In this document: positions 21,301 to 62,213 of the stretch, piece by piece
How the letters are laid out: every line of letters starts with the position of its first letter
Position numbering within the stretch: position 1 is the stretch's first letter
Source: a bacterium
GTDB taxonomy: Bacteria; Patescibacteriota; Minisyncoccia; Phycocordibacterales; UBA5272
NCBI GenBank assembly: GCA_023267635.1
Contig: JAHFMX010000006.1
Coordinates: forward strand, 1,940-65,939
Length of the DNA stretch: 64,000 bases
Direction of reading: 5' to 3'
Program-made: the position numbers and the translations under genes
The notes under the pieces: model-generated
What the model saw: only the letters and a program-made list of their open reading frames with translations
Databases searched by the model: none
Told to the model about the DNA's origin: nothing

Positions 21301-24300
21301 AGTTCTTGATCAATACAATGCTATGCCCATAAAAGTTGAAGTCTGGTCTGGCCAAGGAGAGCCCTATTCTGCTAAAGGCAAAGTGTCTTCTGCTGAAATG
21401 AGGAAAGACATAGCTGAAAATAACCATCTTTACATCTATAAAACAGAAGCAGATTCTTTCGGGCCTCCTGGTGTCATCTATGATAGTCACCCTCTTCTTG
21501 AGCAGACTGGTATTAAGGACATCAATGGAGTTCCTTTGGTCTACAATGACCTGCTCCGGGCAGTGCATGACTATTATGCACATACGATGACTGATGCTTC
21601 TTTTGGTCCAATAGGTGAAGAAGCAGCCTGGAAAACCCACATGCTGATGACACGTAGCCCTTGGGCAAAGTGGGCATTGACATCGGAAACTCGCGGGCAG
21701 AATTCATGGGTTAACTTTAGGGCTTCAGTACAAGGGCTTCCATTGAATGAGAGGGGTTTTGCCATCCAGAAAGTTGATCTACTTCCAAAGAAGTTCCTCT
21801 ACACTGGAGATATTGTTGCTGATGCTAACTTGTCAGAATTGCCTGATGAGGGTGCTCTTTACTCAAAGAATCTTAATATGTCAAAAGAAGCAAGGATGCA
21901 GCGTGCTGTAGAACAGGGGTTTGATACTAGCAAGATTATGTACCACGGAACAGGTGGCAACATTAAAGCTTTCGACCTAAGCTTCGGTGGTCAAACTAGC
22001 CATAGTGAGGTTGGCAAGCTTGGTGTGTCACTTTCTGATGCCCCACTTGTAGCAAATGAGTTTGCAGGAATGGCGGGTAGAAGAGAATTACGCAATGCGA
22101 ATGTTATGCAGCTACTTTACAAGCCTGGTAAGCAGCTTGAGATTAATTTACCAGATGCAGGTCTAGTGGACACCATAAAGAAGGCCTGGGCTGATGGGTA
22201 TGATAGTGTTCGATTCAATAACTACAGAACTCCTTTAGGCTACAAAGGTAATGTGTACATTATCAGGAGACCAAGTGACATTCGTTCTATCTACGCTGCT
22301 TTCGATCCTTCTCAACATGGCAGTTCAGATATTCTTTACTCAAAGAATCTTGACCTGTCTCATAAGGCAAGAATGGAAAGAGCTGTTGAACAGGGCTTCA
22401 ACATCAATCATAAATTCGTTCATGTGTCTCCTCATGCTTTGCCTACTGAATTAAGAAATGACAAAACCCTATATCTGAGTGATAACTTTAAATACGCAGA
22501 ACGCTATGCTAGCCCCAGTGCATCTTCAATGGGTGGAAAAACAGGAGACTACTACAGCAACTTAGCCCCAACAAGCACCCCCGTTTACATAAAAGAGAAG
22601 AATGTCTTTGATACTAGAAAACCAAAAGACCGTAAACTATTTAATGAGAAATTTTTAAACAAATATGGCAATGGCACACCACTACAAAAATCTGGGCTCC
22701 CAGATTGGGTAGAAGCAGAAGACTTTAGAGAGTTCTTTGAAGACAACAACCTTGACTATAATGGTGTTATTGTTGATGAAGGTGCTGACCCTAATGACAA
22801 AGGTGGTGTAACTAAAAGAGGTATTAGCTATGCTATGTTTGATCCTTCAGCAGTAAGATCAGTGCACGCAGCATTTGATCCTGCACAACAAGATAGCTCA
22901 GACATTCTTTATTCTAAGAAAGCCAAACCAGAACTTTACTCTGCTTTGGAAAGAGGCATTAACAATTCTCCAGATCGTATTTTCAATGCCCCGGCTTCTC
23001 AGGTTAAGTCATGGCTAAATAGCAATGCACCTAAACTTGGAATTAAATCCGATGAAATTTACTGGACTGGAATTAATGAGTACCTTGACTCTTTAGGTAA
23101 TACTAAGACCAGCAAGCAAAGTGTTCTGGAATTTATAAGTAAGAATAAAGTTAATCCGATTGATAAAATTCTTGGTGTGGAGTCAAAAGACCTTAATGAT
23201 ATTAGATTAGAAATTAATGATCTTGAAAATGAGATTGATGTACTGGAGCATAATTACCCAGGGTCTAGTGGAAATGAAGTCTATGAAGAAGATGAAGATG
23301 GTAATGAGGTCTATGCTGATAGTGACTACGTGCAGGAACTTAGGGATGAGCACGAGAAGATTATAGATGAAAAGACAAAAGAACTTGACAGATTAAAAGA
23401 AGATGAAGAAGAACTTGCAGAAGAGTCTGAAGGCAAGCATTCTGGTGATCGGTTAAACTTACCTAATGGTAGAGATTATAGGGAGCTGGTTGTAACAATA
23501 CCTGGCATTAGGAAATTTAATGAAGAAGATGCCACACACTTTGGGGATGTTGGTGAGGGTACACAAATTTCATGGATTCGATATGACTCAAGAACTGATG
23601 CTAATGGAGAGTCTTCTTTATTCCTAGAAGAGGTACAAAGTCAACGTGGAGCGGAGGGCAGAACTAAGGGCTTCGGTGACTATGATGTAGTAAAAGCACA
23701 TGAAATATCAAAAAAGCTTCATTCTATAGCACTTAAAGAAATCAATCTTGAGAGTGAATTAGAGAATAATGGAGGTACACTTAGTCCTGAAAAATGGAAA
23801 GAGCTAGAATCTTTAAAAGAAGAGCATGACTTATTAATTGCTGAACAGAAAAAAGAAGAGTCTAAGAGAACGCTGGTACCACCTGCACCCTTTATAACTG
23901 ACAGTAAGAACAAAGCTACTAACACCTACATATCACTGCTTCTAAAAAAGGCAGTCATACAGGCAATAAATAATGGGCACTCCTCTGTAAGCTGGACTAC
24001 CGGAGATCAACAAGCAGATCGTTATGATCTTAGTAAAATGGTATTAGCTATTAGGTACAATCATTTAGGAGACTTAGTTACTACTAAAGTTGATGATAGC
24101 GTGTGGCAGACAATAGCTACTGGAGTACCAGAAAATAAAATAGCTGACTACATTGGGAAAGAAGCAGCAGAAAAGTTGCTAAGTCAAGATAAGGATGTCT
24201 ATGGGCATAGAACTATTACAGGTAATGACTTAAAAGTAGGTGGTGTATGGACTGGGGATATGTATGGGGATGCTCGGGGTTTAAATGCGCAAGGCAAACC

Positions 24301-27300
24301 TTCATTGATAACTCAGGCTGCTTCAGAAATTTCACGTAAGTTCGGTGGTAGGATAGGGGCTATAAGTATCCCAGGCCTAAGATATAGGAGCGAATTTGGC
24401 AATCCATCAATAACACCAGAATTAGAACAGCCGGCTTTGATTATTACTCCTGAAATGCGAGAAAAAGTTCTTGCTGAAGATTTGCCTTTGTTCTCACGTA
24501 GAGCTACATTTACACAGACAGTACAAAATCAGTTTCAAAAAGTAAAGCACTTCGCTACCGGCTTCGATCAAGGTATAAGTACACTTGCTGATATGCGCTC
24601 TGTGCTTAGCACTGGTCACATGCCAACTAAGCACATAGATAAACAAAGTATCCTGGATAAGGTTGCTACATACTTAGTCGATTCTTCAAGACCTTTTGAT
24701 GTCTGGACAAGAAGGCTTCCTAACACTGTTAAAGCAGCTCAATTAGTACTCTCAAAAGACCTAGCTAAACGTAGAACCGCTGTCATGAGTAAAGAAGCTC
24801 TTGATACTTATTTGCGGCCTCTATCAAAAGTAATTAAGAAAATAGCTTCCGATATTGGCATGGATCATTGGGCTGCTCAGTCAATGGCGGGGTACTGGAT
24901 GTCAATGAGGTATGCCATAGAAAAGAATCAAGACTTCATTAGACAAGACAAAGAAGCTTATGAGCAAGCAATCACTAACCTAATGTCTAATCCAACTAAT
25001 GCAAGCCTAGTGAAGCTGGTAAACAAGGCTGCTGATAAGCAAGCTGCCAGGATTGCTGCCATCAATGAGCAAAGAGAAATCGACCCTAATAATGAAACAT
25101 TACAAGCAGGCTTGGCCGGCGGTTACAATGACTTCACAGCTACTAAGCTTATGAATGAAATCGAGTCCAAGATACCAAGAGCTTACCTGGAAGAAGCTGC
25201 ACAGCATATATACGACATGATGAAGTGGAAGACAGAACGAGATTTGAAAAACGGTAAGGTTACACAGGAGCAAGTAGATAGTTGGTTCAACTCACCCTTC
25301 TATGTACCATTAACCGGTGATCCAAGTGTAGACGAGTCAGAAGATAGCTTGTTCAACCCAGGCGGCATAAACCAAGCCAAAGATAAGTCAGCTGTAGGAC
25401 GTAAAGGCAGTCTGGCACAGAGCGGTATTGATGCGGCGACCGAACAAGTAGAGAAGTCAGCTAAGTACCACGGTTGGGTAGACTTCAAGAACAGACTGGT
25501 CGAAACTTATGATGAGCTTATTGCTGAGGAAATGGCACAGGGTGCTAGTAAACAAGAGGCCAAGGATAATGTAGAACGTGAGTATGGAATAACCAAGACT
25601 CCTGAAACAAGAGTCGTTGGTACAGATCAAGGTGCTTTGCTACTTCCTTCACAGAACCCCACAGGCATAACTGTTCGCAAGAACGGGGAATCTAATGTCT
25701 ATGATCTCCATAATCAGGAAGCAGTAGATGCTTTGAAGAGCGTGAATAAAGAAGATGTTCCTAGCATACTTCGTCCTGTAGCCAACTTTACCAGAACTTA
25801 TGCACGCTTCGTTACTCAGCTATTACCCGGTTTTGGTCCGGTTAACGCTATACGTGATACATGGGAACGGTCAGAAAATATCCGTACACGGGTCTTAGAA
25901 GAGTATCCTGATCTAAATATGGATCAAGTTGCAAGAGACGCTATTAAAACCGCAGCAGACCCCAGGCTAATACGGAAGATAGCCGGTGTTATGCTAGAGA
26001 ATAGTTCTCTAAGCTCTAAGTTCCCTATTAATGAAGATGACCCAGACATCAAAACCTTAAGAGCTTTGATTGAGGAAGGTGGTGCTTCCACGGTAGGTGA
26101 CTACCTTGCTACTTCAGGCAGAGACCTTGCTAAGCAAATGAAAGATTCCCTGAAGCTCTCTACAGAAGCCTGGAACCTGGTGTCAGCCTGGAATAACTCC
26201 TTCGAGTTGGTTTCATCCTTATCAATCTTCAAGGCACTTACCAGCGCAGGGGTTAACAACAAGACTGCTGCAGCCACAACCCTTAACTTAATGAACTTTG
26301 GTAAGCAGGGCACTATGATAGGCCCCCTGAAAGCTCTATATACCTTCGTCAACCCCACAGTACAGGGGGGTCATCAGCTCTTACAGACGCTGACTACACG
26401 AAAGGGGCAAGCCAGGGCAGTTGCATACACTTTGGCTGGTATTGCCCTCTATGGCATGCTACGTGCCTGGGATGGAGACGACGACGATCTTGGTGAAAAC
26501 AAGATGGACAACCAAGGTATGTTCATTTCAGAACGTAACATCCTGATACCTTATGGTGATGGAAACTACGTGAAAGTGCCTGTAGGCTTTGGTCTTCCTC
26601 AGCTTACCTGGTCTGCTGCTGTTAACCTTGATAAATGGATGTTTGGTAAACAGAAAGGTGAAGACACCGTGGCTGGTATCTTGAAGTCTACAGCTAGAAA
26701 CTTCGCCCCGGTAGCTCCCAGTGAAACCAACATTTCACAGCATCCTATTTACTGGATGGCTCAAACGTTCTCACCACAAATAGCTAAGCCTTTAGTGAAT
26801 GTAGGCTTGAATATCAACACCTTTGGTTCTTCTCTAACCAATGCAGGGTATGGTAAAGAAGGCATTTCTGAAGCTCTACAGGGCAGGAAATCAACTGCCC
26901 AGGAATGGAAGGACATAGCAGTTGAGCTGGGCAAACTGGGTATTGATCTTTACCCGGAACAAGTAAGAGAAATAGTTCGGGGCTTCGCTGTTGGGCCTGT
27001 TAATGAAGTTATCAAAGCTACAATAGAAAATCCTAATAGAGAGAAATTAGGAAGAACAACAGTCAATAACCTGGTTGATAGATGGGTATCAGTACATGAC
27101 AGTGGGGCTTTGAAAGAGAGGCTGTATTACATGCACCGTGATGAGATGAATGCCGCTGCTAGAAAAGAATCACTTGGAACTGAGCTAAGTTCAAAAGAGA
27201 CAGGTTTAGCTAAGCTTAATAGATCAATAAGCAAGCTTGAAGGCTCAGCTAATGGCAAGCGAGCTGCTGCTGCTAAAGCTATTAAAGCTGGTAAGTCAGG

Positions 27301-27385
27301 ATCAGAGTATCTTGCACAAGCCAACAAAATAAGAGATAATGCAGAGCGCATAACACGCAATTACTACAATGCACATGTGGAATAA
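15356..27385 (+). CDS. giant 4009-aa multi-domain protein, candidate injected polyvalent/ejection protein with two zincin-like HExxH motifs
   Basis: Uninterrupted 12 kb ORF. N-terminal glycine-zipper hydrophobic segments (VIGGLIGGALGG...IGGLIGGGLGYLG). HEFLH at nt 18386-18400 and HEAQH at nt 19199-19213. Four copies of a D-I/L-LYSK linker motif. C-terminal hydrophobic stretches. Confidence 0.7.
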   Translation: MANLIGQQARVKPSDDQDFLGAINSYGGASSTSATTQKNPDQEFTDTINSYGDQTGTLGAYGQTFVQAAKGVPGFIGQAIEGGTPFDQENGVDQIVKDTQKSNEEFASGSDAEQPVLGGLAKVKDIKGSAGSLTSSLATMAPTVIGGLIGGALGGPAAPLTATAGATIGGLIGGGLGYLGMSRQSENQLIRDVVDKEDQTRSAQGKPLLNQDEKVAKQNALLESGDPQLQGFAEAAGETIGNFLEIAAAMTPLGKLGNVLKAVGGPFSGALATAALRGTGILAVENIEEQATNLVQNPIAKRQGLPEATAAETAKQTTLATLPFAALGMGVGGYHDYKSAKKEKDFQEYLAGASTEELQSNIQTLQTPSPEDDEQTAQYKQSLAQAYTDELNSRGTTDENNNQATGAEQPSGIGGIANRPTTLDRGTPKQEPGTNGQGVNVTEPAGASRRSVEPIPQEETRQPGLDERGSTLSNISDEGLKKAIELLNKHETDSPEAIKSKEDAITFYSNELERRKPPTQPIEETQNEKQKITNETDANANEANAETGQGQEGLQVIQPNITQPNITEEGTNLEQAGTATSKNAGQTTKEETGTTTVSSTGEGGLVNVNQAAPVTGIGAEQAKQGTSFGQPGLAESVEAQQKEEVVGSIPTTASVGATGAQKSKAPVVSEGAPQPATAGGQTTPDYSYLSDKGFTPEEIQHVGEASKTHKDLNGWARGRFGYDRVKGVNFTQSIAPNAPAINNEVDAAAHEAAASPLNDLAHPSQAQIEAENPKLGHIENFHGMSISIENPEGSVRSGVSLEGRPWQNTLKNHYGYIKGTVGNDNDHVDTFIGPDVGSQKAFIVNQNHVTRGIGTNRFDEHKVILGAKTKKQALQIYHDNYEKGWQGMGSITQMSVGQLKEQLGTGKLTKPVLQEQVSQQETNQSNKPEAPTPKGYMSTGDVFSRLTSKQRAFHKSGKLIVVPTEEQLPASLRPKKGEESSIPGLYHPKEDKIYVVAHNIKHDELNGLLAHEFLHRAVRVDKVFKGKFDKFDRGLTARFNMAGRGIGSDIEKAAYKHVVDAGTPQHQLLDEYKSYLVQEYAKNPDSFVGEIKRLIEEFIAAIKVALVKSGLDSGFIEKLTPADLYEMSKYGAEQVESTQPQKNNEALKSFIGVKSQTAPKYELSTAMSDIEAGENPEGVRKDTGWFKGADEHWRFEIDDSEAKLDEKEVNTLKGYYKLGRLSGLEKILIHPKLFAAYPQLRTIGIKFAKLQEGVGGGTSQDGKFITLNVDLKDDKILSVLLHEAQHAVQIHEGWAGGGSPSTFQKEFVERVELLEKIVKDINNELSVQAGIMNKYEVRGSYRKYTAPEGYTAAAKYDELMQERSDAAKSLRRIGLLNDVADTSRKIYSRLYGEIEARNVQRRMDFSAQEREKFSPEGTQDYANKDAVILWANADVKGLLFPENEADLLYSKKTKTQEGIKLNERKPTEISTKETSEYTKRNILNTSRLDRTSHAEKRYFQERSGNSAERVRGIKGVFSPGKSITSDFEKAGVPSPEYHEWFNGNKMVEKYMGIMTKAQNTKFGAAVYIYPKEDYRKMRIFVTPDELSGFALKTDGDIVSVVSLPEAPSGRVYSMMALATELGGTKLDAFDTVLPEIYAVSGFKEVGRVNWNEDYKPDNWDKEVFSKFNNGEPDVVFMEYDPTYSPFKRSEIEVSLSNAQHTIPGISKLTKEFVDGDTTAGVLLRELGHDSLDYLTSGIKSVSISYKDPTGVYGGDKEPSLGVAASFEEKDRKEVLRALAQFAKNFDQEQFHVLGSVGTNTEVMHVYDDGSYNTKVYSFTLNKVPSEKEVSKLINNSGLYGLTISGSTLESYYVEQDQNDANEYKEWTSKIDKLHEIISGRNLKSYGEKVARLWVYGSGNRAISYGQIEGKFHPSYTDQGQKASQRVASRLIGRDVKAPSIPKTVTPEQKALQASIAQAYDEMRINALDQTNVIRAYKELASEVLDQYNAMPIKVEVWSGQGEPYSAKGKVSSAEMRKDIAENNHLYIYKTEADSFGPPGVIYDSHPLLEQTGIKDINGVPLVYNDLLRAVHDYYAHTMTDASFGPIGEEAAWKTHMLMTRSPWAKWALTSETRGQNSWVNFRASVQGLPLNERGFAIQKVDLLPKKFLYTGDIVADANLSELPDEGALYSKNLNMSKEARMQRAVEQGFDTSKIMYHGTGGNIKAFDLSFGGQTSHSEVGKLGVSLSDAPLVANEFAGMAGRRELRNANVMQLLYKPGKQLEINLPDAGLVDTIKKAWADGYDSVRFNNYRTPLGYKGNVYIIRRPSDIRSIYAAFDPSQHGSSDILYSKNLDLSHKARMERAVEQGFNINHKFVHVSPHALPTELRNDKTLYLSDNFKYAERYASPSASSMGGKTGDYYSNLAPTSTPVYIKEKNVFDTRKPKDRKLFNEKFLNKYGNGTPLQKSGLPDWVEAEDFREFFEDNNLDYNGVIVDEGADPNDKGGVTKRGISYAMFDPSAVRSVHAAFDPAQQDSSDILYSKKAKPELYSALERGINNSPDRIFNAPASQVKSWLNSNAPKLGIKSDEIYWTGINEYLDSLGNTKTSKQSVLEFISKNKVNPIDKILGVESKDLNDIRLEINDLENEIDVLEHNYPGSSGNEVYEEDEDGNEVYADSDYVQELRDEHEKIIDEKTKELDRLKEDEEELAEESEGKHSGDRLNLPNGRDYRELVVTIPGIRKFNEEDATHFGDVGEGTQISWIRYDSRTDANGESSLFLEEVQSQRGAEGRTKGFGDYDVVKAHEISKKLHSIALKEINLESELENNGGTLSPEKWKELESLKEEHDLLIAEQKKEESKRTLVPPAPFITDSKNKATNTYISLLLKKAVIQAINNGHSSVSWTTGDQQADRYDLSKMVLAIRYNHLGDLVTTKVDDSVWQTIATGVPENKIADYIGKEAAEKLLSQDKDVYGHRTITGNDLKVGGVWTGDMYGDARGLNAQGKPSLITQAASEISRKFGGRIGAISIPGLRYRSEFGNPSITPELEQPALIITPEMREKVLAEDLPLFSRRATFTQTVQNQFQKVKHFATGFDQGISTLADMRSVLSTGHMPTKHIDKQSILDKVATYLVDSSRPFDVWTRRLPNTVKAAQLVLSKDLAKRRTAVMSKEALDTYLRPLSKVIKKIASDIGMDHWAAQSMAGYWMSMRYAIEKNQDFIRQDKEAYEQAITNLMSNPTNASLVKLVNKAADKQAARIAAINEQREIDPNNETLQAGLAGGYNDFTATKLMNEIESKIPRAYLEEAAQHIYDMMKWKTERDLKNGKVTQEQVDSWFNSPFYVPLTGDPSVDESEDSLFNPGGINQAKDKSAVGRKGSLAQSGIDAATEQVEKSAKYHGWVDFKNRLVETYDELIAEEMAQGASKQEAKDNVEREYGITKTPETRVVGTDQGALLLPSQNPTGITVRKNGESNVYDLHNQEAVDALKSVNKEDVPSILRPVANFTRTYARFVTQLLPGFGPVNAIRDTWERSENIRTRVLEEYPDLNMDQVARDAIKTAADPRLIRKIAGVMLENSSLSSKFPINEDDPDIKTLRALIEEGGASTVGDYLATSGRDLAKQMKDSLKLSTEAWNLVSAWNNSFELVSSLSIFKALTSAGVNNKTAAATTLNLMNFGKQGTMIGPLKALYTFVNPTVQGGHQLLQTLTTRKGQARAVAYTLAGIALYGMLRAWDGDDDDLGENKMDNQGMFISERNILIPYGDGNYVKVPVGFGLPQLTWSAAVNLDKWMFGKQKGEDTVAGILKSTARNFAPVAPSETNISQHPIYWMAQTFSPQIAKPLVNVGLNINTFGSSLTNAGYGKEGISEALQGRKSTAQEWKDIAVELGKLGIDLYPEQVREIVRGFAVGPVNEVIKATIENPNREKLGRTTVNNLVDRWVSVHDSGALKERLYYMHRDEMNAAARKESLGTELSSKETGLAKLNRSISKLEGSANGKRAAAAKAIKAGKSGSEYLAQANKIRDNAERITRNYYNAHVE

Positions 27386-52820: not shown

Positions 52821-54977
52821 ATGTCAGTAGCCCCTGAGAGTGCTAGAGAGCTTCTAAGAGCGAAGGTCGAAGTAGCCAGAGAGATAGAGAAGCGAGAGTG
52901 TGAAAAGTCTCTAGCAGAGTTCTGTCGCTCTGCATGGCACATCATAGAGCCGGGAACTCCACTCAAGTGGAACTGGCACATTGACACTATCTGCGCTTAC
53001 ATCCAGGCTTTCCATGAGGGGAAGTTACCGGATAAGAGGTTGATCATAAACGTACCTCCAGGGACTTTAAAAAGTATCATTGTCTCTGTGATGTACCCAT
53101 CTTGGGCTTGGATCAAAGACCCTTCTACTCGGTTCTTGGCTATCAGTAACGCTGCTTCTTTGGCTACTCGTGATGCATTGAGAATGAAGTCAATCGTCAC
53201 ATCCCCTTGGTATCAGAGCCACTGGCCAACGACATTGAGGATCGATCAGAATGAGAAGAACCTGTTTGTTAATGGCACACAAGGCTTCAGGCAGTCACAA
53301 GGTATAAGTGCATGTACCACTGGGAAGCGTGGAGATTGCTTTCCAGAATATATGGAAGTGTCTACAGAGCATGGGATGAAGAAGATTACAGAAGTTAAGG
53401 TCAATGACTTGGTTTGGTCTATGAACACTAAGACCGGGGGTGTAGAGTTAAAGCCAGTCACTCACTTAGTGCACAATGGCACAAGTGAGATTGTTGAAGT
53501 AGTGCTTAGTAATGGTCAGATAATACACTGTACACCTGACCATAAGGTTTGGACTATTGAAGAGGGTATGGTTAGGGCTGATAGCTTAGTGTCTGTTAAG
53601 GGCTCTGAGCTCTCTCTTGACATCATTAGCATAATTGGCACTAATTCCAAACAATTTAGCAAGCTCTTTACCAGTCATGGTGGAGTTAACAAACCTCTCT
53701 TCACTCCTGATAAGACCTGTGTTGCTGATAGAGTAAGCACCCTCATAACCAGGGATAGTACGCCACTCAATGTTGTTAGTAGTAGAAGTATTGGGCATAT
53801 TAGTGATACCTACTGTTTGTGTGTGAAAGACAATGCTACATTATTTGTAGGAACAAGACAAGTGCTTGTCTCCAATTGTCTAATAATAGATGACCCCGTA
53901 GACAGCCAACAAGCCTTCTCTGATGTTATTAGAGAATCAGTTAACAATACGTGGGATAATGCTTTGTCATCAAGATTAAATGACATGACAAAATCCGGAG
54001 TGCTATTAATCCAACAAAGGGTTAATGAACTTGACCTTACTGGGCATCTGCTAAAAAAAGTAAAATCACATTGGACACATCTTAGCATTCCAATGAGGTA
54101 TGAAGGAACATCAACGTTTAATCCCATTAAAGATATTGGAAATGCTGAAGTAAAAGACCCAAGAATAAAAAAGAGTCAACTACTATTTCCTTCTCGATTT
54201 CCTGAGCGTGCAGTTCAATCGTTAGAGGAAGACTTAGGAGAGTATGGTACTTCGGCTCAGCTTCAACAAAGACCGGTTCCGGCAGGCGGCGGAATTATAA
54301 AAAAACATTGGTGGCGTGTCTTACCAGAAGACGAAATGCCAAAGATCATCAACGTCTTCATCAGCTTCGACACTGCGTTCTCAGAAGCAGACTCAAAGAC
54401 TTCTGCGTTCTCCGCCGCGACGCGCTGGGGTATCTTCTGGCATGAGCAAAGACAACGCTACTGTCTCTTGGCGTTGGGCATGTGGTTCGCACGGGTAGGC
54501 TACGACGAGCTACGTGCTACAGTCCAGGCCATGAACAAAGACCATGATCCCGATGTGCTACTCATCGAAAAAAAGGCAACAGGCATAAGTATCATACAAG
54601 ATTTGAAGAGATCAGTTCCAGGTAAGGTAAGAGCGTACTGCCCAGGCAAGGGAGAAGACAAGATCAGTAGAGGAAACTCAGTATCCCCTATGGTGCAATC
54701 AGGTCAATGCTATGTACCTAACAAGACTTGGGCTTTAGGTGATGGTAAGGGCAAGCTAGGTTTGATTGATTACATTGCTAGTTTTCCCGGAGGTGCACCA
54801 CCCGCGCCAGACATATTTGACTCATTTTCAGCGGCACTCATATTCATGCGCTCAGGCAATTGGCTCGGAGATCATGATGACGACAAAGACTGGACTAATG
54901 TTATCACACACGTGAGCTCTGAAGAGGAGGATGAAGACCTTGAAGACTCAGCAATACCAACTCGATTTTATGGCTAA
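52821..54977 (+). CDS. terL: terminase large subunit (ATPase plus nuclease) interrupted by a mini-intein
   Basis: N-terminal LIINVPPGTLKS (Walker-A-like, PPxxGKS class); Walker B LIIDDP re-formed when the extein junction GKRGD | CLIIDDP is joined. Confidence 0.7.
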   Translation: MSVAPESARELLRAKVEVAREIEKRECEKSLAEFCRSAWHIIEPGTPLKWNWHIDTICAYIQAFHEGKLPDKRLIINVPPGTLKSIIVSVMYPSWAWIKDPSTRFLAISNAASLATRDALRMKSIVTSPWYQSHWPTTLRIDQNEKNLFVNGTQGFRQSQGISACTTGKRGDCFPEYMEVSTEHGMKKITEVKVNDLVWSMNTKTGGVELKPVTHLVHNGTSEIVEVVLSNGQIIHCTPDHKVWTIEEGMVRADSLVSVKGSELSLDIISIIGTNSKQFSKLFTSHGGVNKPLFTPDKTCVADRVSTLITRDSTPLNVVSSRSIGHISDTYCLCVKDNATLFVGTRQVLVSNCLIIDDPVDSQQAFSDVIRESVNNTWDNALSSRLNDMTKSGVLLIQQRVNELDLTGHLLKKVKSHWTHLSIPMRYEGTSTFNPIKDIGNAEVKDPRIKKSQLLFPSRFPERAVQSLEEDLGEYGTSAQLQQRPVPAGGGIIKKHWWRVLPEDEMPKIINVFISFDTAFSEADSKTSAFSAATRWGIFWHEQRQRYCLLALGMWFARVGYDELRATVQAMNKDHDPDVLLIEKKATGISIIQDLKRSVPGKVRAYCPGKGEDKISRGNSVSPMVQSGQCYVPNKTWALGDGKGKLGLIDYIASFPGGAPPAPDIFDSFSAALIFMRSGNWLGDHDDDKDWTNVITHVSSEEEDEDLEDSAIPTRFYG
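53337..53876 (+). mobile_element. 180-aa mini-intein (Hint domain, no homing-endonuclease insert) inside terL
   Basis: Starts at Cys (CFPEYMEV, block A); TPDH block-B-like; ends VLVSN followed by extein Cys; inserted exactly at the Walker B motif. Confidence 0.55.
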
Positions 54978-54994: not shown

Positions 54995-55273
54995 ATGAAC
55001 AAACTAATTTTAATCTCTATACTTTTAACTGGATGTGCTACTGCAAGCAGAGACATCACATATTCTGATGGCACTACATCACACCTCTATGTCTTTGAAC
55101 TTGGAAGGACTGAGGCAATAACAGCACTCAATGCTTCTGAGTCCAGGGACTCAAGTAACTTATCAGTAGGTTCTGCTAATGCAGATGTGAATGTAAAGGC
55201 TATTGATGCTTCAGGTGCATTGATTGGGGATGCTATTGGTACAGCTCTAAAAATATTTGTAGGTAAACCATAA
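54995..55273 (+). CDS. lipoprotein (lipobox LLTGC); candidate spanin component
   Basis: MNKLILISILLTGCATAS signal plus lipobox; glycine-rich amphipathic C-terminus; immediately upstream of the endolysin. Confidence 0.45.
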   Translation: MNKLILISILLTGCATASRDITYSDGTTSHLYVFELGRTEAITALNASESRDSSNLSVGSANADVNVKAIDASGALIGDAIGTALKIFVGKP

Positions 55274-55848
55274 TGGCAGACTTTAAAAAAGCATACAACA
55301 TAACGATCAAGAACGAAGGACTTTACAGTGTAGACCCAGATGATATGGGGGGAGAAACTTTCAATGGCATATCCAGAAAGAATTGGCCTAGTTGGAGTGG
55401 GTGGAGTGTAGTAGATGGTGCAAAAGTAAATGGAAAGCTAAGAATAACACCAGACTTCATGAACAAGATTGCTCCATTGGTTTTTAATTTCTACAAGGCA
55501 AACTTCTGGGACGCAGTGCGGGGGGATGGCATACCTAGTCAAGCTATTGCCAATGAATTATTTGACACCGCTGTGAATGTTTCTGTGCACCAAGCCACCA
55601 TGTTCTTGCAAGCGTCTCTGAACATCATGAATAACAGGGGGAAATTGTGGCAGGATATTAAGGAAGATGGTAAATTTGGTGCAGGTACTTTGAGCTCTCT
55701 GCAAACTGCGGTCAAGGTTCGTGGGGAAGCAATGGTGTACAAAGTTCTTAACTGCTATCAAGGAGCTTTTTATATCAATCTCATGGAGAACAAAGAACTT
55801 AATGAGAAGTACATCGGTTGGTTCAACAGAGTTAACACAAACATATAA
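55273..55848 (+). CDS. endolysin: GH108 lysozyme-like domain plus PG_binding_3 domain
   Basis: IKNEGLYSVDPDDMGGETFNGIS (GH108 EGGY...DP.D.GG.T..GI motif); FYKANFWD...LFDTAVN...DGKFGAGTL typical of PG_binding_3. Confidence 0.7.
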   Translation: MADFKKAYNITIKNEGLYSVDPDDMGGETFNGISRKNWPSWSGWSVVDGAKVNGKLRITPDFMNKIAPLVFNFYKANFWDAVRGDGIPSQAIANELFDTAVNVSVHQATMFLQASLNIMNNRGKLWQDIKEDGKFGAGTLSSLQTAVKVRGEAMVYKVLNCYQGAFYINLMENKELNEKYIGWFNRVNTNI

Positions 55849-55869
55849 AACAAGTAGGAGTTAAATATC

Positions 55870-57771
55870 ATGGCTACTAATATTACAGTTAATGATAAAA
55901 AATTAACAAACGTTGCAACTAATCAAGCAATATGTACTAATTTCATTAGCACAATACGATATGCAAACTTTTCGACTACTTATTATGTAACAGAAGATGT
56001 AGCTCAAATCTCTGTAATCTTTCCAAACTGGTATGTTGATCAAGGTGCCACTCAAACAGAACTAGGCTCCGGTTCAGATATTACAATAGAGGCAAGTATA
56101 GAGTACCCACCAAATGTATTTAACCCATTAACATTTTCTGGTAAAACTATAGGCACCATTCCAAATGGTGAAAATATTGTTGCTGATGCTGTGAGACTGC
56201 GACTACAAAAAGGTGAAAAATTTAAACTAAGAGGCTACTTGGTTACACCTTCAGGAATGCCATTAATAACTACTATTTTCATTGATCCTGAAGGAACTCT
56301 ATGTGAAACAAGCGCGACATTATTGACAAATAAAACTTTGGGCGGTGATATAGTCAATACATCTTCTGGTTTTGATTCACAATCTTATGGAAGCGTCGCC
56401 ATATTAGGCTTAGCGTCTGGGCCTAGTGTATATGTTATAGGAACGTCCAGGACTAGAGGCTCATTAGACATTAAGGACCTATCTCTAGGGACTGGTGAAG
56501 TATGCAGAACATTGGCTAATAGCAATATTTCTTTTTGTAATGCAGCCGTCGGCAGTGATGGAATATTCTACTTTTTGAGATCAAATGCTAAAAGAATTAA
56601 ATTACTACAGTACTATAACAACATTGTTATTTCACATGGTGTGAATGATCTTCTTTACTCCCCCGGAGCATTTTTCTCTTATTACAAAGCTGTATTGGAG
56701 TTAATACCAAAAGATATAGCAGTTTTCTTGTGTACAATAGCACCTTGGACTACTTCTACCGATGGATGGGCAACTACGACAAACCAAACTATTACAGCTA
56801 ATGAGCCAAATAGACTAGTATTTAATTCAACCTTAAAAAATGGAAAAATTAAAGGAGTATCTGGGTACTTTGACATAAATGATGCTCAATCAAGTAGCTT
56901 TCTATCTGGTAAATGGGAGCCAGGGGCAACTGATGACGGCATACATGCAAATGGTTTTGGGTATCAATTGCCAGTTTATAGAAAAGCAATAGACATAACA
57001 AAGTTTAAGCCACAAACAAACACGCAAGATAAAATAGAGTTCCCATATACTGAGGTATTCACATTTACATGGTCGTCTGGGGGAGCTAAAACATTAACCT
57101 TTACACCGACATCTGATGCTGGGATAGTCTTTGAAAACTCAGATGGTGTTATACAAAATAATGGGTTTTCTAGCACTGTAAAAAAAGGTGAGAAAATGAG
57201 GATTAAGGCAAAGTATCCAGAATTTATTGGGTATCTTAACTTCAATTCAAAAGGAGTTATTAGCACTGTATTTCCTAGTCTTACAAAGTACGTTGAACTT
57301 GTATCTTTTGACTGCTCTTCTAACACTATCTCTGGAACAATAGGAACCCTAGATTACAATCCGTTGCTCGTTAACTTTTTTGTACTTCTTAATCAATTGA
57401 CTGGAAGCATACCAAGCTTAACCAAAAATACCTTACTAGGCTCTTTCCAAGCACATTTTAATCAAATATCTGGGGGTATTCCTGATCTGAGTGCTAATAC
57501 TGTTTTAACAACATTTGATGTTCATAGTAATCAACTTACAACTTATGCAGGCGGAACCATAGGGCCTATACTAAGAACATTCAATGCTTCTAGTAACTTA
57601 CTACCTGCTGCTGAAATAAATAAAATACTGGCTGCTTTTGTAGCAGCAAACATAACCACAGGAACAAGAACGCTGACACTTGGAGGAACTGGTAATGCTG
57701 CTCCTACTGGTCAGGGAGTTACAGATAAAGCAACGCTTATAACAGCTGGCTGGACTGTTAGTACTAACTAG
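55870..57771 (+). CDS. tail fibre/spike with SGNH-hydrolase-like esterase domain and C-terminal leucine-rich-repeat-like segment
   Basis: SGNH block III ISHGVNDLL and block V TDDGIHANGFG; C-terminal NQLTGSIPSLTKNTLLGSFQAHFNQISGGIPDLSANTVLTTFDVHSNQLT. Confidence 0.5.
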   Translation: MATNITVNDKKLTNVATNQAICTNFISTIRYANFSTTYYVTEDVAQISVIFPNWYVDQGATQTELGSGSDITIEASIEYPPNVFNPLTFSGKTIGTIPNGENIVADAVRLRLQKGEKFKLRGYLVTPSGMPLITTIFIDPEGTLCETSATLLTNKTLGGDIVNTSSGFDSQSYGSVAILGLASGPSVYVIGTSRTRGSLDIKDLSLGTGEVCRTLANSNISFCNAAVGSDGIFYFLRSNAKRIKLLQYYNNIVISHGVNDLLYSPGAFFSYYKAVLELIPKDIAVFLCTIAPWTTSTDGWATTTNQTITANEPNRLVFNSTLKNGKIKGVSGYFDINDAQSSSFLSGKWEPGATDDGIHANGFGYQLPVYRKAIDITKFKPQTNTQDKIEFPYTEVFTFTWSSGGAKTLTFTPTSDAGIVFENSDGVIQNNGFSSTVKKGEKMRIKAKYPEFIGYLNFNSKGVISTVFPSLTKYVELVSFDCSSNTISGTIGTLDYNPLLVNFFVLLNQLTGSIPSLTKNTLLGSFQAHFNQISGGIPDLSANTVLTTFDVHSNQLTTYAGGTIGPILRTFNASSNLLPAAEINKILAAFVAANITTGTRTLTLGGTGNAAPTGQGVTDKATLITAGWTVSTN

Positions 57772-57788
57772 CTTTCAGTAGAGCTGTG

Positions 57789-57812
57789 ATATTATTATTA
57801 TTATTATTATTA
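57789..57812. repeat. (TTA)8 microsatellite in intergenic spacer
   Basis: Read directly. Confidence 0.8.
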
Positions 57813-57867
57813 ACTTAGGTGTAAGTTTAGTAGAGTATAAATATTTTTAGATTAGGAGATCAGTACC

Positions 57868-58713
57868 ATGGCAACACCAACTGTAACACTTTGGCCTTCA
57901 GCATCAAGTACAAAGCTGTCCAATATTTTATATGACCTAAGCACTAATACAACAGCCGGTGTGGGCACGTTTGTTGTCCCAAGCAATGTCAGTCTTATCT
58001 ATGTTGATGCTTGTAGTGGAGCCGGTGGCTCAGCCGGTGGACATTCTGCTGACCCAGGCGGTGGTGGTGGAGCCGGTGGATCAGGGCAGTGTGTTAATAT
58101 GTTATCTTTGGCAGTAACACCAGGAAGCACCCTAACATTAACAATCGGCGCAGCAGGAACACCTGGTACAGCAGGCAATGACGGTGCAACTTCAGGAGGA
58201 AACACGACAATAGATGGTGTTATATGGACTGGTTCATCAACGCCAAATTTATTCAAATTAACAGGAGGCATTCTTGCCTCAAAAGGTACTGTTACTAATG
58301 GTGGAGCAGGTGGTTCAGCAGGTAGTTCTTCTGCTGCTGCTGGAGCTACTGGCACTGGCACTGGTGCAAGTGGTGGTACAGTTTCTTCAGTTATTGGAGT
58401 TTTAAATTCGAGAGCTTATTCTGCGGCAGGTGGTTCAGCAGGTGGTGGTGCTACAGGCCCAGGAGCTGGTGGTGCTGGTACTGCTATAGGTATAGCAACA
58501 GATTCCAGTATATTTATTTCTGGTGGTGCAGCATCTGGCACTAAGGGTGGTGGTGCAGCAGGTACTAATTCACAATATGGTAAAGGCGGAGCTGGTGGAA
58601 CTGGCACAACTCCAGGTGGTAATGCTACTGGATATGGATCGTCAGGTGGCGGCGGAAGTGCTACTACAGGTGGTGGTTTAAGTATGCCAGGCTTTGTTAT
58701 GATTTATTATTGA
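57868..58713 (+). CDS. glycine-rich virion protein
   Basis: GAGGSAGGHSADPGGGGGAGGSG and repeated GG-x-G tracts, about 30% Gly; AGGAG SD. Confidence 0.45.
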   Translation: MATPTVTLWPSASSTKLSNILYDLSTNTTAGVGTFVVPSNVSLIYVDACSGAGGSAGGHSADPGGGGGAGGSGQCVNMLSLAVTPGSTLTLTIGAAGTPGTAGNDGATSGGNTTIDGVIWTGSSTPNLFKLTGGILASKGTVTNGGAGGSAGSSSAAAGATGTGTGASGGTVSSVIGVLNSRAYSAAGGSAGGGATGPGAGGAGTAIGIATDSSIFISGGAASGTKGGGAAGTNSQYGKGGAGGTGTTPGGNATGYGSSGGGGSATTGGGLSMPGFVMIYY

Positions 58714-58720
58714 GAATTAT

Positions 58721-58891
58721 ATGAAAAAAATTATTTTAATTTTACTATTTATTTCAACAAGCTTAAATGCAAAAACATATTACGTTGATAATAAAATTCC
58801 AACTGATAGTAACACATATAATCCGATAACATATTCGGCAATAGGTGGAACTGAATCAGCATTTAAAACAATTAAATCTCTTAATGCTTGA
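58721..58891 (+). CDS. small secreted protein (56 aa), very AT-rich, not in the track
   Basis: Signal peptide MKKIILILLFISTSLNA. Confidence 0.35.
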   Translation: MKKIILILLFISTSLNAKTYYVDNKIPTDSNTYNPITYSAIGGTESAFKTIKSLNA

Positions 58892-59081
58892 TATACCAAT
58901 TGACCACAGACCACTTGAGTACTCATATCACACAGAGTGTCGTGTTAAGATTGAAGAAAAGGGTTGCGCTATATGCCATGCGGGTACAGAGAAAGGCCAT
59001 ATAAGTGACCGAGTAATATGGGTAAGAAAAAATTGCATTGAAGATTCTGAAATATTAAAACGTATAGGTGAACTAAAATGA
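58884..59081 (+). CDS. small Cys/His-containing protein
   Basis: 65 aa from the internal ATG of ORF 58845-59081; HTECRVKIEEKGCAICHAGTEKGH. Confidence 0.3.
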   Translation: MLDIPIDHRPLEYSYHTECRVKIEEKGCAICHAGTEKGHISDRVIWVRKNCIEDSEILKRIGELK

Positions 59082-59383
59082 TAACTCCAGCAGTAGCAGC
59101 ACTAATACTTAACTCTTTAGGTTTTATAAAAGCTTTGCACAAAGGTGAAGAAATTGAACACAAAGAGGTGTACAAGAACACCCAGTCTTTGATGAACATG
59201 ACGTTATTTTCTCTTTGGGTGGTGTCCCAGGTATTTCCTGGGCTTGGCCTTGATGAGGGCACAGAAAACTCAATTGCCTCTGGTTTAGTTGCAATAGTCA
59301 CTGTCTATAACACATGGTGCACCAATGCAACAAGCAAGAACGTAGGACTTGGTGCTATACCAGTGAAGTCAGAAGAAGTATGA
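59078..59383 (+). CDS. three-TM membrane protein; holin candidate
   Basis: Hydrophobic segments PAVAALILNSLGFI, LFSLWVVSQVFPGLGL, IASGLVAIVTVY; 101 aa; about 3 kb from the endolysin. Confidence 0.35.
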   Translation: MITPAVAALILNSLGFIKALHKGEEIEHKEVYKNTQSLMNMTLFSLWVVSQVFPGLGLDEGTENSIASGLVAIVTVYNTWCTNATSKNVGLGAIPVKSEEV

Positions 59384-59604
59384 CCACACTGGTAGCAATT
59401 AAAGATTTAAAAATGAGATTACATGGAGAATCTTTTTGGAGGGAGTATCACAAAGGTACAGAATTTGGGCTTATGGAGTACTCACAAGAAGAACCAAGAC
59501 CTTTGTATGCACATGTCAGTCTTCCTGATGGTGGTGATTCTTGGGCACCTTTGTTCAACCACGCCAGAAAAGAGCACAAACCAATATTTTTAACGAAGGG
59601 CTAG
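59380..59604 (+). CDS. hypothetical protein
   Basis: ATGA-coupled internal start of ORF 59314-59604. Confidence 0.3.
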   Translation: MTTLVAIKDLKMRLHGESFWREYHKGTEFGLMEYSQEEPRPLYAHVSLPDGGDSWAPLFNHARKEHKPIFLTKG

Positions 59605-59613
59605 AAAAGACAA

Positions 59614-59784
59614 ATGAATAAAGTAGAAGAAACTTTAAAACACCTGGTTCTTAGAGGCCCTACGAAAAGTAGAGTAAACCTGCATAAGAATGCTAATGGT
59701 AGTTTGGACAATGCGTACTCGATTGGAGTTAAGGACGGTAAAATACTTTTGGCTAGAGAACTATTGAAGGAACTTAATAAATGA
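59614..59784 (+). CDS. small ORF (56 aa) coupled to portal start
   Basis: ATGA overlap with 59781. Confidence 0.25.
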   Translation: MNKVEETLKHLVLRGPTKSRVNLHKNANGSLDNAYSIGVKDGKILLARELLKELNK

Positions 59785-62213
59785 GTACAATGAATTATGG
59801 TCTTGGTGACGAAGATATAGCAGTTCCAACTTGGGAAGAAGCAGCTAAACCTGATATTGTAGAAGTTATGAAATTTGTTGAGGAGGCTGAGGCTAATGGA
59901 CTTGCACCTGAAGAAGTTTTATCACATGATCAGATGATGGTGTGGGAAGAATTCTTGGCTACAATGAATAGTGCAGAGCAGCCTCTTGAGCACTTTGCTG
60001 ATTTAACTGACTACATTGATAGCGTTGATCACAGTTACTTAGGGGGCTTGGCTTCCGATGTAATCAACTGGGTTATGTGGGACGAGGAAACCAGGAGAGA
60101 TTGGGAGTACCGTGAGGCAGAAGGCATTAGATTACTAGGAGTCTCAGACACACCATTAAGCAAAGCTCTCTTTGAAGGAGCGAGTCAGTTAGTGCACCCG
60201 ATACTAGCAGAGGCAACAATAGACTTCCATTCAAGAATGATGACTGAAATATGGCCTCCTGAAGGACCAGTCAAAGCCATTGTTCTTGGAGACTCAACAC
60301 CAGAACTAGAAGAACAGGCTGATCGTGTTTCAGATTACATGAACTATCAGTACACTGAAGACATGCCTGGTGGGTTTGAAGAAACTGACGCTATGCTGTT
60401 TAGGCTTACGCTTTCAGGTTCTTGCTTTAAGAAAACCTACAATGACCCTCTTACAGGTAAAAACGTTTCTAAGAAGGTAGAGGCTTCAGACTTCATAGTG
60501 CCCTACTCAGCTACAGACTTGGTATCAGCTCCACGCTTCACCCACAGATACCGGATGAATCACAACACAGTACTTAAACATCAACAAGCCGGATACTTCA
60601 CTAAACTTGTTGATGTACAACTGCCTACAACTACCAATGACACAACACAGAAATCCCCTCAACGAAGAGAGATAGATAGCGTAGAAGGGAGCAATGAAGG
60701 TTCTTCTATTGAAGACCCTACACATATTTTAATGGAAATGGTTGTGGACTTGGAAATTCCTGGAATGGAGGACACTGATCCAGTTACCGGTAAACCTACA
60801 GGCATCCTTAGACCCTACTTAGTTATTGTTGATTATGACTCTCAAAAGATTCTGCGAGTCCAAAGAATGTGGGAGCAGGATGATGAGAAGAAAGAAAAAA
60901 TTGTTGAGTACACTCATTTCAGACTTTTCCCTGGCCTTGGATTCTATGGTATGGGTCTTTTGCATTTTATGGGCAATCTGGTACTTGGTGCTAGTGGTTC
61001 GCTAAACAGTTTACTTGACTCAGCTGCATTCAGCAATTTCCAAGGGGGCTACAGATCAAGTGATGCACGAATATCTGGAGATCAGAAACCTCTGAAGCCC
61101 GGTGAATGGCGTGAGCTTAAGAACGTAACCGCAGAGGACTTACAGAAGGCTTTTTTCCGAGTGCCTTATGGGGAGCCTTCAGATGTTTTGTTTGATGTTC
61201 TGAAGTACCTGGATGAAAAAGCTTCAACCAGTTTCCTCTCAGCCGGACAAGTGATGACCGGCGAAGCAAACAACAATGCCCCGGTTGGGACAACCCTAGC
61301 TCTTATTGAGCAAGGCTCCAAGCCATTCAATGCAGTCCACATTCGTTTGCATCGTGCTATGCACGAAGAGTTCAGACGGTTGGCTAATCTTAATGGTAAG
61401 AACGTCCCTGAAGAAGGATACCCATACGCCATAGCAAGTAAGTCTAAAGTTATTTTTGCTGCAGACTTCGATGAAAGAGTCGATGTAATACCTGTTTCTG
61501 ACCCTAACATCATTAGCTCAACACAAAGGATTCACATAGCCCAAGCTGTTTTGCAAGTGGCAGAAGCCCATCCTGATGAAGTTAATATTTCTGAAGCAAT
61601 CAAGGCTTTCTTTACAGCGATCAGAGTGCCTAATGTTGATGCACTTATAGCAGATAACCAAGCAATAAAAGCCAATCAACAAAGAATGGCAGACATTGAG
61701 TATGAAGCCAAGCAGAAGGATATTGCCAAAGTACAGGCTGAGATAAACAAGCTTGAGGCTGAACGTGTACAAGTTACATTGACAGGAATGTACACAGCAT
61801 ACCAGGCGGCGCAAGTTGCCGTACAAGATGCAATGGGCACACCTGCTACGGTTGACCCTAAGACAGGAGTGGTTATTCAAGGGACTGCTCCTGGCCTTTC
61901 AGTTGCTACAGTTGCAGAACAGCTATTTCAAAGTGCCGGTGGTAAAGATTGGAATGGTTCACCACTACTTGATGAGGCACATGCTCAAGCACAACCACAG
62001 CAACCAGTTTTATCAAACTTTGCTCAAACACCTATGCAAGCACAGACAGCAGCTGTTGGTAATAACACAAGTCCAATGTTTCCGGCTAACCCTAAGATGC
62101 CTGAAGTGGGTACACCACCTTCAACAGCTCCTGTGGCAGCTCCTGCAAGTGGGTTAGTTGGAGCTAATGCAGGGATCGAAACACAAAGAGCTGATGGTGG
62201 ACTGAGTGCCTAG
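59781..62213 (+). CDS. putative portal protein with long C-terminal helical (barrel-like) extension
   Basis: 810 aa; sits between the terminase and the scaffold-like gene; C-terminal Q/A/K-rich helix (QRMADIEYEAKQKDIAKVQAEINKLEAERVQ) reminiscent of P22-type portal barrels. Confidence 0.45.
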   Translation: MSTMNYGLGDEDIAVPTWEEAAKPDIVEVMKFVEEAEANGLAPEEVLSHDQMMVWEEFLATMNSAEQPLEHFADLTDYIDSVDHSYLGGLASDVINWVMWDEETRRDWEYREAEGIRLLGVSDTPLSKALFEGASQLVHPILAEATIDFHSRMMTEIWPPEGPVKAIVLGDSTPELEEQADRVSDYMNYQYTEDMPGGFEETDAMLFRLTLSGSCFKKTYNDPLTGKNVSKKVEASDFIVPYSATDLVSAPRFTHRYRMNHNTVLKHQQAGYFTKLVDVQLPTTTNDTTQKSPQRREIDSVEGSNEGSSIEDPTHILMEMVVDLEIPGMEDTDPVTGKPTGILRPYLVIVDYDSQKILRVQRMWEQDDEKKEKIVEYTHFRLFPGLGFYGMGLLHFMGNLVLGASGSLNSLLDSAAFSNFQGGYRSSDARISGDQKPLKPGEWRELKNVTAEDLQKAFFRVPYGEPSDVLFDVLKYLDEKASTSFLSAGQVMTGEANNNAPVGTTLALIEQGSKPFNAVHIRLHRAMHEEFRRLANLNGKNVPEEGYPYAIASKSKVIFAADFDERVDVIPVSDPNIISSTQRIHIAQAVLQVAEAHPDEVNISEAIKAFFTAIRVPNVDALIADNQAIKANQQRMADIEYEAKQKDIAKVQAEINKLEAERVQVTLTGMYTAYQAAQVAVQDAMGTPATVDPKTGVVIQGTAPGLSVATVAEQLFQSAGGKDWNGSPLLDEAHAQAQPQQPVLSNFAQTPMQAQTAAVGNNTSPMFPANPKMPEVGTPPSTAPVAAPASGLVGANAGIETQRADGGLSA

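Follow-up and report, generated by a model that had tools for sequence, protein, structure and literature searches.

Inteins in the large terminase subunit (TerL) are the commonest inteins of phages and insertion at the Walker B site has been documented (PMC5050341). Kelley et al. (2016, PMC5050341) reported that representative TerL inteins, including one at Walker B, spliced readily. The penultimate histidine was found to be poorly conserved in phage inteins, with Gly, Lys or Ser in its place, and splicing became slower when the histidine was restored in one of them (PMC5050341). Class 3 inteins have no nucleophile at position 1 and are recognized by the WCT triplet, Trp at B12, Cys at F4 and Thr at G5 (PMC5050341). 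The current study concerns a terL gene with an inserted intein in a 64,000-nucleotide stretch of contig JAHFMX010000006.1 (assembly GCA_023267635.1, positions 1,940 to 65,939, forward strand), designated the window. The explanation that we favor, and consider highly probable, is that the insert, at the Walker B strand of TerL, is a splicing-dependent mini-intein which arose by deletion from an intein carrying an antisense HNH homing endonuclease gene (HEG), leaving behind a 70-codon open reading frame (ORF) with NUMOD4 and helix-turn-helix (HTH) segments.

The window intein resembles the mycobacteriophage intein TerL1-e (Gaia gp2; PMC5050341) in that it is located at Walker B in the TerL ATPase domain, a residue other than His is common at the penultimate position and splicing is presumed to be essential for packaging. 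However, TerL1-e is a class 3 intein with the WCT triplet and no position 1 nucleophile, whereas the window intein has Cys1, lacks the Trp and the Thr, and shares only the block F Cys. It also resides in a different TerL family and, unlike TerL1-e, is accompanied by the relic of an antisense HEG.

Endonuclease genes in a frame other than that of the intein have been described. Gosselin, Arsenault and Gogarten (bioRxiv 10.1101/2025.01.02.630785) reported antisense VSR-like and out-of-frame EndoVII-like HEGs in actinobacteriophage inteins, terminases included, and a passage of the same preprint credits the antisense LAGLIDADG HEG of the Synechocystis DnaX intein to Gorbalenya 1998 and Gogarten 2002. 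An out-of-frame HEG in a cyanobacterial dnaX intein is mentioned in another preprint (bioRxiv 10.64898/2026.09.14.751524). Mini-inteins were predicted to be decay products, and the arrangement was proposed to have originated when a free-standing HEG invaded a mini-intein (bioRxiv 10.1101/2025.01.02.630785). As in these cases, the HEG of the window family is a separate ORF between the splicing blocks, the intein frame is open and the sense linker is unstructured. In contrast to the known antisense LAGLIDADG and VSR-like and out-of-frame EndoVII-like genes, the antisense HEG of the window family is of the NUMOD4/HNH_3, I-HmuI-like type, and the family occurs in uncultured environmental phages and in many TerL families. 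A hidden HNH gene in an alternative frame of an in-frame phage-gene insertion is also known from ShiLan (Arsenault et al. 2025, PMC11855218), but that insertion has no splicing domain, whereas the flanks in the window constitute a bona fide Hint domain. An antisense NUMOD4/HNH_3 HEG in an intein was not mentioned in the literature searched, a search that was not exhaustive (the term 'numod' had 0 occurrences), and we found no earlier description of the large and widespread family of terminase inteins with an antisense I-HmuI-like HNH HEG.

A single long ORF spans the terL region of the window (52821-54977, plus strand) and encodes a TerL precursor of 718 residues, the intein included. A search of protein collections returned approximately 840 TerL homologues, several of them labelled phage terminase large subunit, and most of the approximately 100 homologues listed had 505-590 residues and lacked a 180-residue segment of the window protein. 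In the joint alignment these 180 residues formed one clean insertion after reference position 173 (KRGD|VIIIDDP in homologue P0007). The N-extein (52821-53336, plus strand), delimited by alignment with intein-free TerLs, has 172 residues ending in TGKRGD and carries the Walker A motif PPGTLKS at 53055-53075, while the C-extein (53877-54977, plus strand; 366 residues and the stop codon) comprises the remaining ATPase domain and the nuclease domain. The joined exteins, 538 residues in all, were colinear with intein-free TerLs of 529-541 residues, aligning as one high-scoring segment pair (HSP) with 60-67% identity. The intein-free homologue P0008, which is 66% identical to the spliced extein, matched PHROG_38, terminase large subunit (E=1e-74). 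Its AlphaFold2 (AF2) model, with a predicted local distance difference test score (pLDDT) of 85.3, matched the structures of the large terminases of PhiV-1 (8dgc_E, the best match, 1.4e-16), T4 (gp17), D6E, Sf6 and HK97. The window protein itself gave a weak match to Terminase_6C in Pfam. These features point to a phage large terminase with an additional strand, catalytic E (ASCE) ATPase domain containing Walker A and B and an RNaseH-like nuclease domain. No match to the gene was found by blastn among 50,697 phage records, and the protein-level phage matches, of which Roseobacter phages CRP-901 and CRP-902 were the best, had less than 40% identity, so that the phage is evidently uncultured.

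The insertion point was assigned from the P0008 model, in which the P-loop is formed by LIINV-PPGTLKS and the helix that follows, and a strand, E176-180 (ILVID, then DP), starts exactly one residue past GKRGD. The intein is thus inserted exactly where the Walker B strand starts (GKRGD|CLIIDDP in the window), and Cys+1 together with the Walker B strand, C-L-I-I-D-D-P, occupies 53877-53897 (plus strand) at the start of the C-extein. A TerL family profile aligned this stretch with ...SRADIIIADDV of T7-type terminases, weakly (E about 0.03-0.045), and a single-sequence search of the PDB with the spliced extein gave no terminase match. Since the sequence-based mapping of Walker B is weak, the assignment rests mainly on the AF2 model of P0008, which places the intein at the N-terminal edge of the Walker B β-strand, directly ahead of C-L-I-I-D-D-P. 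In inteins of the same family, the +1 Cys was found 4, 3, 2 or 1 residues ahead of the Walker B DD, depending on the terminase family, and in one locus (L087) the intein lay approximately 20 residues upstream of Walker B. From these varying positions it seems that the intein has moved ectopically more than once in the vicinity of the nucleotide-binding motif. Three or more further intein sites were seen in the TerL family of the window, after reference positions 82, 297 and 487.

The inserted segment (53337-53876, plus strand; 180 residues, 540 nt, in the TerL frame) begins with Cys1 (TGC, 53337-53339) in the peptide CFPEYMEV and ends with ...VLVSN, in which Ser179 and Asn180 are encoded at 53871-53876 (Asn180, AAT, 53874-53876). 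It is followed by Cys+1 (TGT, 53877-53879) and LIIDDP. Block B is represented by Thr66-Pro-Asp-His69 (53532-53543) and block F by Cys160 (53814-53816). The segment matched the Pfam family Intein_splicing (PF14890) with 41.5 bits (E=1.6e-10), above the gathering score of 35.8, and more weakly the families PT-HINT and Hint. A profile built from the window intein and three mini-intein relatives retrieved from the PDB only inteins and intein-like Hint domains, namely the bacterial intein-like (BIL) domain 2lwy (3e-10), NrdJ-1, Npu DnaE and gp41-1. In an AF2 model of the intein the Hint β-strands were located at residues 1-85 and 133-180, and the top 50 Foldseek matches of the model in the PDB were all Hint domains, with target-normalised TM-scores of up to 0.82. 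The two halves are separated by a linker of 47 residues (residues 86-132, 53592-53732, plus strand) that is predicted to be disordered (pLDDT 29-37) and is missing from the 141-163-residue mini-inteins of relatives. Pfam detected no endonuclease family in the sense frame of the 180 residues; the element is a mini-intein in that the endonuclease domain is absent from the intein frame.

Conservation was scored across 25 members of the intein family. Cys1, Phe2, Thr10, Gly13, the C-T-x-x-H motif, the block F motif [YF]-C-[LI], the terminal Asn and Cys+1 were invariant in all 25 and kept in the window. The penultimate residue was Ser in 18 members, as in the window, His in four and Ala, Gln or Thr in one each. 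The fold, Cys1, TxxH, the terminal Asn followed by Cys+1 and the colinear insertion assign the insert to the Hint superfamily as a putative class 1-type intein. A class 3 intein was ruled out, as Cys1 is present and invariant and the Trp and Thr of the WCT triplet are missing: position G5 is Val, Ala or Leu rather than Thr, and the Trp after block B is unconserved and offset by one, so that the family shares only the block F Cys with class 3. The Cys at block F position 4 is itself invariant beside the invariant Cys1 in 25 of 25 members, which puts the class 3 nucleophile position outside class 3. Since the terminase is indispensable, the window intein is most likely competent for splicing.

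A preliminary description of this DNA had proposed a mini-intein at 53337-53876 with a Hint-like TPDH block and a penultimate Ser. The coordinates proved exact, the intein was confirmed by the Pfam, PDB-profile and fold matches and by the conserved residues, and the block and the Ser were found at 53532-53543 and residue 179, respectively. It had also suggested aligning the joined exteins with intein-free terminases, which gave the single HSP with 60-67% identity, and had considered that related terminases might contain the 180 residues as an integral domain; most of the listed homologues lack the segment and are otherwise colinear. The motif LIIDDP, which was thought to be split, is in fact whole, with the intein immediately upstream, as judged by the alignment and the P0008 model.

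The complementary strand of the insert contains a 70-codon ORF (53586-53798, minus strand) that starts with ATG at 53798-53796, terminates with TAA at 53588-53586 and is codon-opposed to the TerL frame. Its product, MPNTSTTNNIEWRTIPGYEGAYSISNTGLIRSEERFVNSTMTGKELAKLFGISANYANDVKRELRALNRH, matched the Pfam family NUMOD4 (PF07463) with 33.9 bits (gathering score 23.4, E=3.7e-8) and HNH endonuclease families in PHROG (E=1.5e-8). The product aligned with residues 1-38 and the final 32 residues of the 328-346-residue HEGs of three relatives (L001-L003), so that relic residues 1-38 (53685-53798, minus strand) correspond to the NUMOD4 module and residues 39-70 (53589-53684, minus strand) to the last helix-turn-helix. 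When the L001-L003 HEGs were compared with the whole window by tblastn, only the relic locus was found (E=4e-15 and 3e-9), and there was no full-length HEG paralogue elsewhere in the 64 kb. HNH_3 is missing from the relic, the region being deleted in the alignment, while L001-L003 have HNH_3 above the cut-off. Without the HNH core, the relic ORF cannot be a nuclease. The missing HEG codons match the difference in intein length (180 versus 438-441 residues), which argues for an in-frame deletion of approximately 260 codons.

The relic was 56-70% similar to the intact HEGs, which were 53-67% similar among themselves in the same columns, and it kept 27 of the 32 positions that are invariant in full-length HEGs; this similarity would fit either a recent deletion or continued constraint. 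An exact search for the deletion junction found none in viral or metagenome contigs and a scan for close relatives with the intein gave only a distant match. The only other copy found was an essentially identical 2.4-kb contig (L179, ENA ERZ27279937) with no mismatches, and consequently selection on the relic was not measurable. A protein database search with the 70-residue ORF gave no homologue of the short form. No Rfam family reached the gathering threshold in the 64 kb, hence no group I intron was found, and there were no tRNA genes.

The ancestral arrangement is apparent in relatives with inteins of 316-441 residues at the Walker B site, which have a full I-HmuI-like HEG with NUMOD4, HNH_3 and HTH segments (201-346 residues) on the minus strand. 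Three of these, P0002, P0003 and P0004 (DNA loci L001, L002 and L003), have inteins of 438-441 residues at the same site as the window. Their minus-strand ORFs, of 330, 346 and 328 residues, respectively, contain NUMOD4 and HNH_3 above the Pfam cut-offs as well as helix-turn-helix segments, while the sense-frame middles of the inteins are junk-like and rich in S, F, I and K. The profile of the three HEGs matched I-HmuI (1U3E; E=1.9e-13), the HNH enzyme of a group I intron of Bacillus phage SPO1, across the N-terminal sheet (EWKDIKGYEGHYQVSNTG, NUMOD4) and the HNH core. The window relic keeps the I-HmuI-like N-terminal module without the HNH catalytic core. Unlike the HEG of the window family, I-HmuI is encoded by an intron and in the sense orientation.

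The HEG frame was exactly codon-opposed to the TerL frame in every case. In this register the codons TTA, CTA and TCA cannot occur in one gene without creating a stop codon in the other. None of them was present in the four HEGs examined (L001-L004), whereas they make up 5.5-6.9% of codons elsewhere in the respective terminases. When synonymous codons were sampled according to terminase usage, the TerL frame had a probability of 3e-11 to 3e-10 of being open in L001-L003 and of 1.5e-5 in L004, which is shorter; the reciprocal open-frame probabilities were 4e-16 to 2e-7. Substitutions between relatives fell preferentially on the third position of HEG codons (for example, 104/61/174), and 83-106 of the differing codons in L001-L003 were synonymous in the HEG frame versus 20-23 in the sense frame. 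The HEGs were also 58-60% identical, whereas the sense linkers were only 33-39% identical. The substitution pattern and the difference in identity indicate purifying selection on the minus-strand protein, with the TerL frame kept merely stop-free. A linker that is stop-free but unconstrained would be expected if the region has to be translated as part of the precursor and is then lost together with the intein.

Searches with alignments of the HEGs and of the inteins revealed approximately 20 further loci in IMG/VR and metagenome-assembled genome (MAG) contigs with the same nesting and register, in terminase families that could not be aligned with that of the window. A complete HEG ORF between blocks B and F, with the intein frame open across it, was present in L001-L004 and about 18 additional loci. 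By sequence, the window is a derivative of the antisense-HEG intein arrangement and not a full member, in that only the 70-codon remnant is present there.

The loci could be arranged as a graded series of decay, 1) a full-length HEG (L001-L003 and others), 2) a HEG shortened at its C-terminus to 232 residues (L004), 3) the 70-residue ORF of the window with both DNA-binding ends intact, 4) a 45-residue open stretch, 39 residues from the first Met, with a degenerate NUMOD4 (L087) and 5) a 141-residue mini-intein in which no more than a vestige is left, with stop codons (L085/P0005). Among free-standing genes, those most closely related to the nested HEG were the NUMOD4-HNH genes of L008 (903-3211) and L011 (894-3094), which are located directly upstream of an intein-less terL in divergent orientation. 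The terminases of these two loci belong to the same family that elsewhere holds the nested form (L032) and the relic (L087). A free-standing HEG divergent from terL offers a simple potential source for the antisense orientation. Free-standing HEGs are likewise found beside target genes or fractured genes with split inteins (Dassa et al. 2009, PMC2677866), and the adjacency of the L008 and L011 HEGs to intein-less terL is consistent with an origin from a free-standing HEG and with the antisense orientation. However, unlike the fractured genes, the host gene is unsplit in the window and its relatives, where one ORF spans the HEG.

Endonuclease ORFs hidden on the sense strand, in a frame other than that of the intein, were also seen in other terminase inteins. 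A second intein lineage at the same Walker B site (L005, 161-2797; P0083) contains a 309-residue +1-frame ORF with HHVDHNPANN...CHTIHH and a weak HNH_3 match (21 bits). The terminase intein of L106, listed with L109, hides a +2-frame HNH_3 ORF (83 bits) on the same strand. The site-487 intein of the TerL family of the window (L180, 1001-3514; P0027) has a 201-residue +2-frame HNH-like ORF, and the site-297 intein (L181) has none. Some terminases have two inteins: L069 (665-4099) has one at Walker B with an antisense HEG and a second near the C-terminus, and L167 has, in addition to the Walker B intein, a LAGLIDADG-like one that lies upstream, near Walker A.

According to the favored explanation, the TerL precursor would be translated straight through the in-frame intein, which would then splice itself out of the protein and leave a functional packaging ATPase of 538 residues. 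Splicing would be carried out by Cys1, Thr66 and His69, Asn180 and Cys+1, probably aided by the invariant block F Cys160. The ancestral HEG would have been a gene of its own, located on the complementary strand of the region that separates blocks B and F, with the TerL frame reading its antisense as an unstructured linker. An in-frame loss of approximately 260 codons would have removed the HNH nuclease and the middle of the HEG. The remaining element would be decayed and non-autonomous, persisting by splicing and alone unable to cut an intein-free allele. Several observations weigh against this scheme. Confidence in the AF2 model of the intein, which was built from an alignment of four sequences, is only moderate (pLDDT 59.5). 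The window has Ala at the 'DNH' position of block F, where 15 of 25 members have His, at a position that is nevertheless variable, being Asn in six of the 25, members with an intact HEG among them. A promoter and terminator scan of 53300-54300 found no sigma-70-like promoter on either strand and no terminator, and a possible Shine-Dalgarno sequence (AGGT) 9 nt before the ATG of the relic is confounded with conserved intein codons and absent in L003. Finally, the correlation between Hint and HEG divergence is modest (Mantel r=0.32, 30 of 5000 permutations), so that a strict co-inheritance of the two is not claimed.

An alternative is that the relic ORF encodes an expressed and selected nuclease-free DNA-binding protein, a NUMOD4 sheet with an HTH that might, for example, bind the terL homing site or regulate the locus. 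The ORF is intact, with an ATG and the possible AGGT, it is as similar to the HEGs as they are to one another and keeps most of their invariant positions, the chance of an open antisense frame given the sense codons is 1.7e-4, and the deletion fused two DNA-binding modules exactly in frame. Yet a recent deletion explains all of these points equally, since TerL survives only a deletion whose length is divisible by three, and in the codon-opposed register such a deletion preserves the antisense frame as well. Moreover, the only other copy is essentially identical, no promoter was detected, no free-standing homologue of the short architecture was found and decay has proceeded further in L087 and L085. 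We consider a functional relic unlikely. That the minus-strand match is a chance antisense ORF has a negligible probability: short codon-opposed ORFs on the antisense strand do often arise by chance, but the NUMOD4 match lies above the gathering score, PHROG HNH families are matched as well and both ends of the relic align with full-length HEGs at the homologous position in relatives. The Pfam score, the alignment with the HEGs and the tblastn result effectively refute it.

The preliminary description had noted the lack of an endonuclease domain, which holds for the sense frame by Pfam but not overall, given the endonuclease-gene remnant on the other strand, and had taken the penultimate Ser as a possible sign of an atypical or slow-splicing intein that might add a layer of regulation to DNA packaging. 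The Ser, together with the Ala in place of the block F His, could be read in this way, and inteins at ATPase active sites have been discussed as post-translational switches (PMC5050341). The Ser is, however, the majority residue, shared by members with intact, selected HEGs, and phage inteins often lack the penultimate His yet splice well, its restoration having slowed the one tested (PMC5050341). A mobile HEG, sporadic distribution and HEG decay amount to the history of a selfish element, and no regulatory feature was seen in the sequence, which makes slow, conditional splicing quite unlikely and leaves the inference drawn from the Ser unsupported. It is very improbable that the 180 residues are an integral or accessory terminase domain, or a non-splicing BIL Hint domain. 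The best PDB sequence match was indeed a BIL domain (2lwy, E=3e-10), but the segment is missing from most otherwise colinear homologues and, in an ATPase that is essential, it interrupts the Walker B strand; in addition, Cys+1 and the terminal Asn are invariant in 25 of 25 members and relatives carry a HEG. Both a BIL domain and an integral TerL domain were rejected by the absence from colinear homologues, the invariant Asn and Cys+1 and the HEG-bearing relatives.

A mini-intein in a phage terminase would by itself be ordinary; what the window adds is the history on the opposite strand, of which it represents a clean mid-stage in the decay series. In the antisense-HEG inteins two overlapping frames are held open over up to approximately 1 kb, and gene callers never report the HEG because the terminase ORF masks the minus-strand gene. 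The free-standing relatives beside intein-less terL, the nested HEGs under purifying selection and the graded decay lend sequence-level support to an origin of inteins in which the splicing domain came first and the endonuclease invaded later. The family may show living intermediates in the assembly of an intein and its HEG, from a free-standing HEG beside terL to the antisense-nested form and then the relic. If the 70-residue ORF were expressed and selected, it would be a selfish endonuclease domesticated from inside an intein. The family also raises the questions of how an antisense gene is expressed within an essential late gene, how large an unstructured insert a splicing Hint domain tolerates and whether conserved nucleotide-binding motifs provide a route for intein hops between unrelated terminase families.

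The surrounding window contains further phage genes. A 4009-residue ORF (15356-27385, plus strand) has a lysozyme/endolysin-like segment at residues ~730-920 and matched a DarB-like antirestriction PHROG (E=1e-26) and giant virion-protein PHROGs. Its product is probably a virion protein that is either ejected or located internally. A portal gene (59781-62213, plus strand; PHROG portal, 6e-18) lies downstream of the terminase, and three ORFs are located between the two (the region 54995-62213, plus strand, including the portal gene): a 92-residue ORF with a lipoprotein-like N-terminus (MNKLILISILLTGC), an endolysin (55273-55848, plus strand; PHROG_315, 2e-33) and a 633-residue SGNH/lysophospholipase-like esterase (55870-57771, plus strand). 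Such a placement of lysis genes between packaging genes is unusual. The guanine plus cytosine (GC) content was 40.8% for the whole window, 41.1% for the intein and 45.6% for the terminase exteins.

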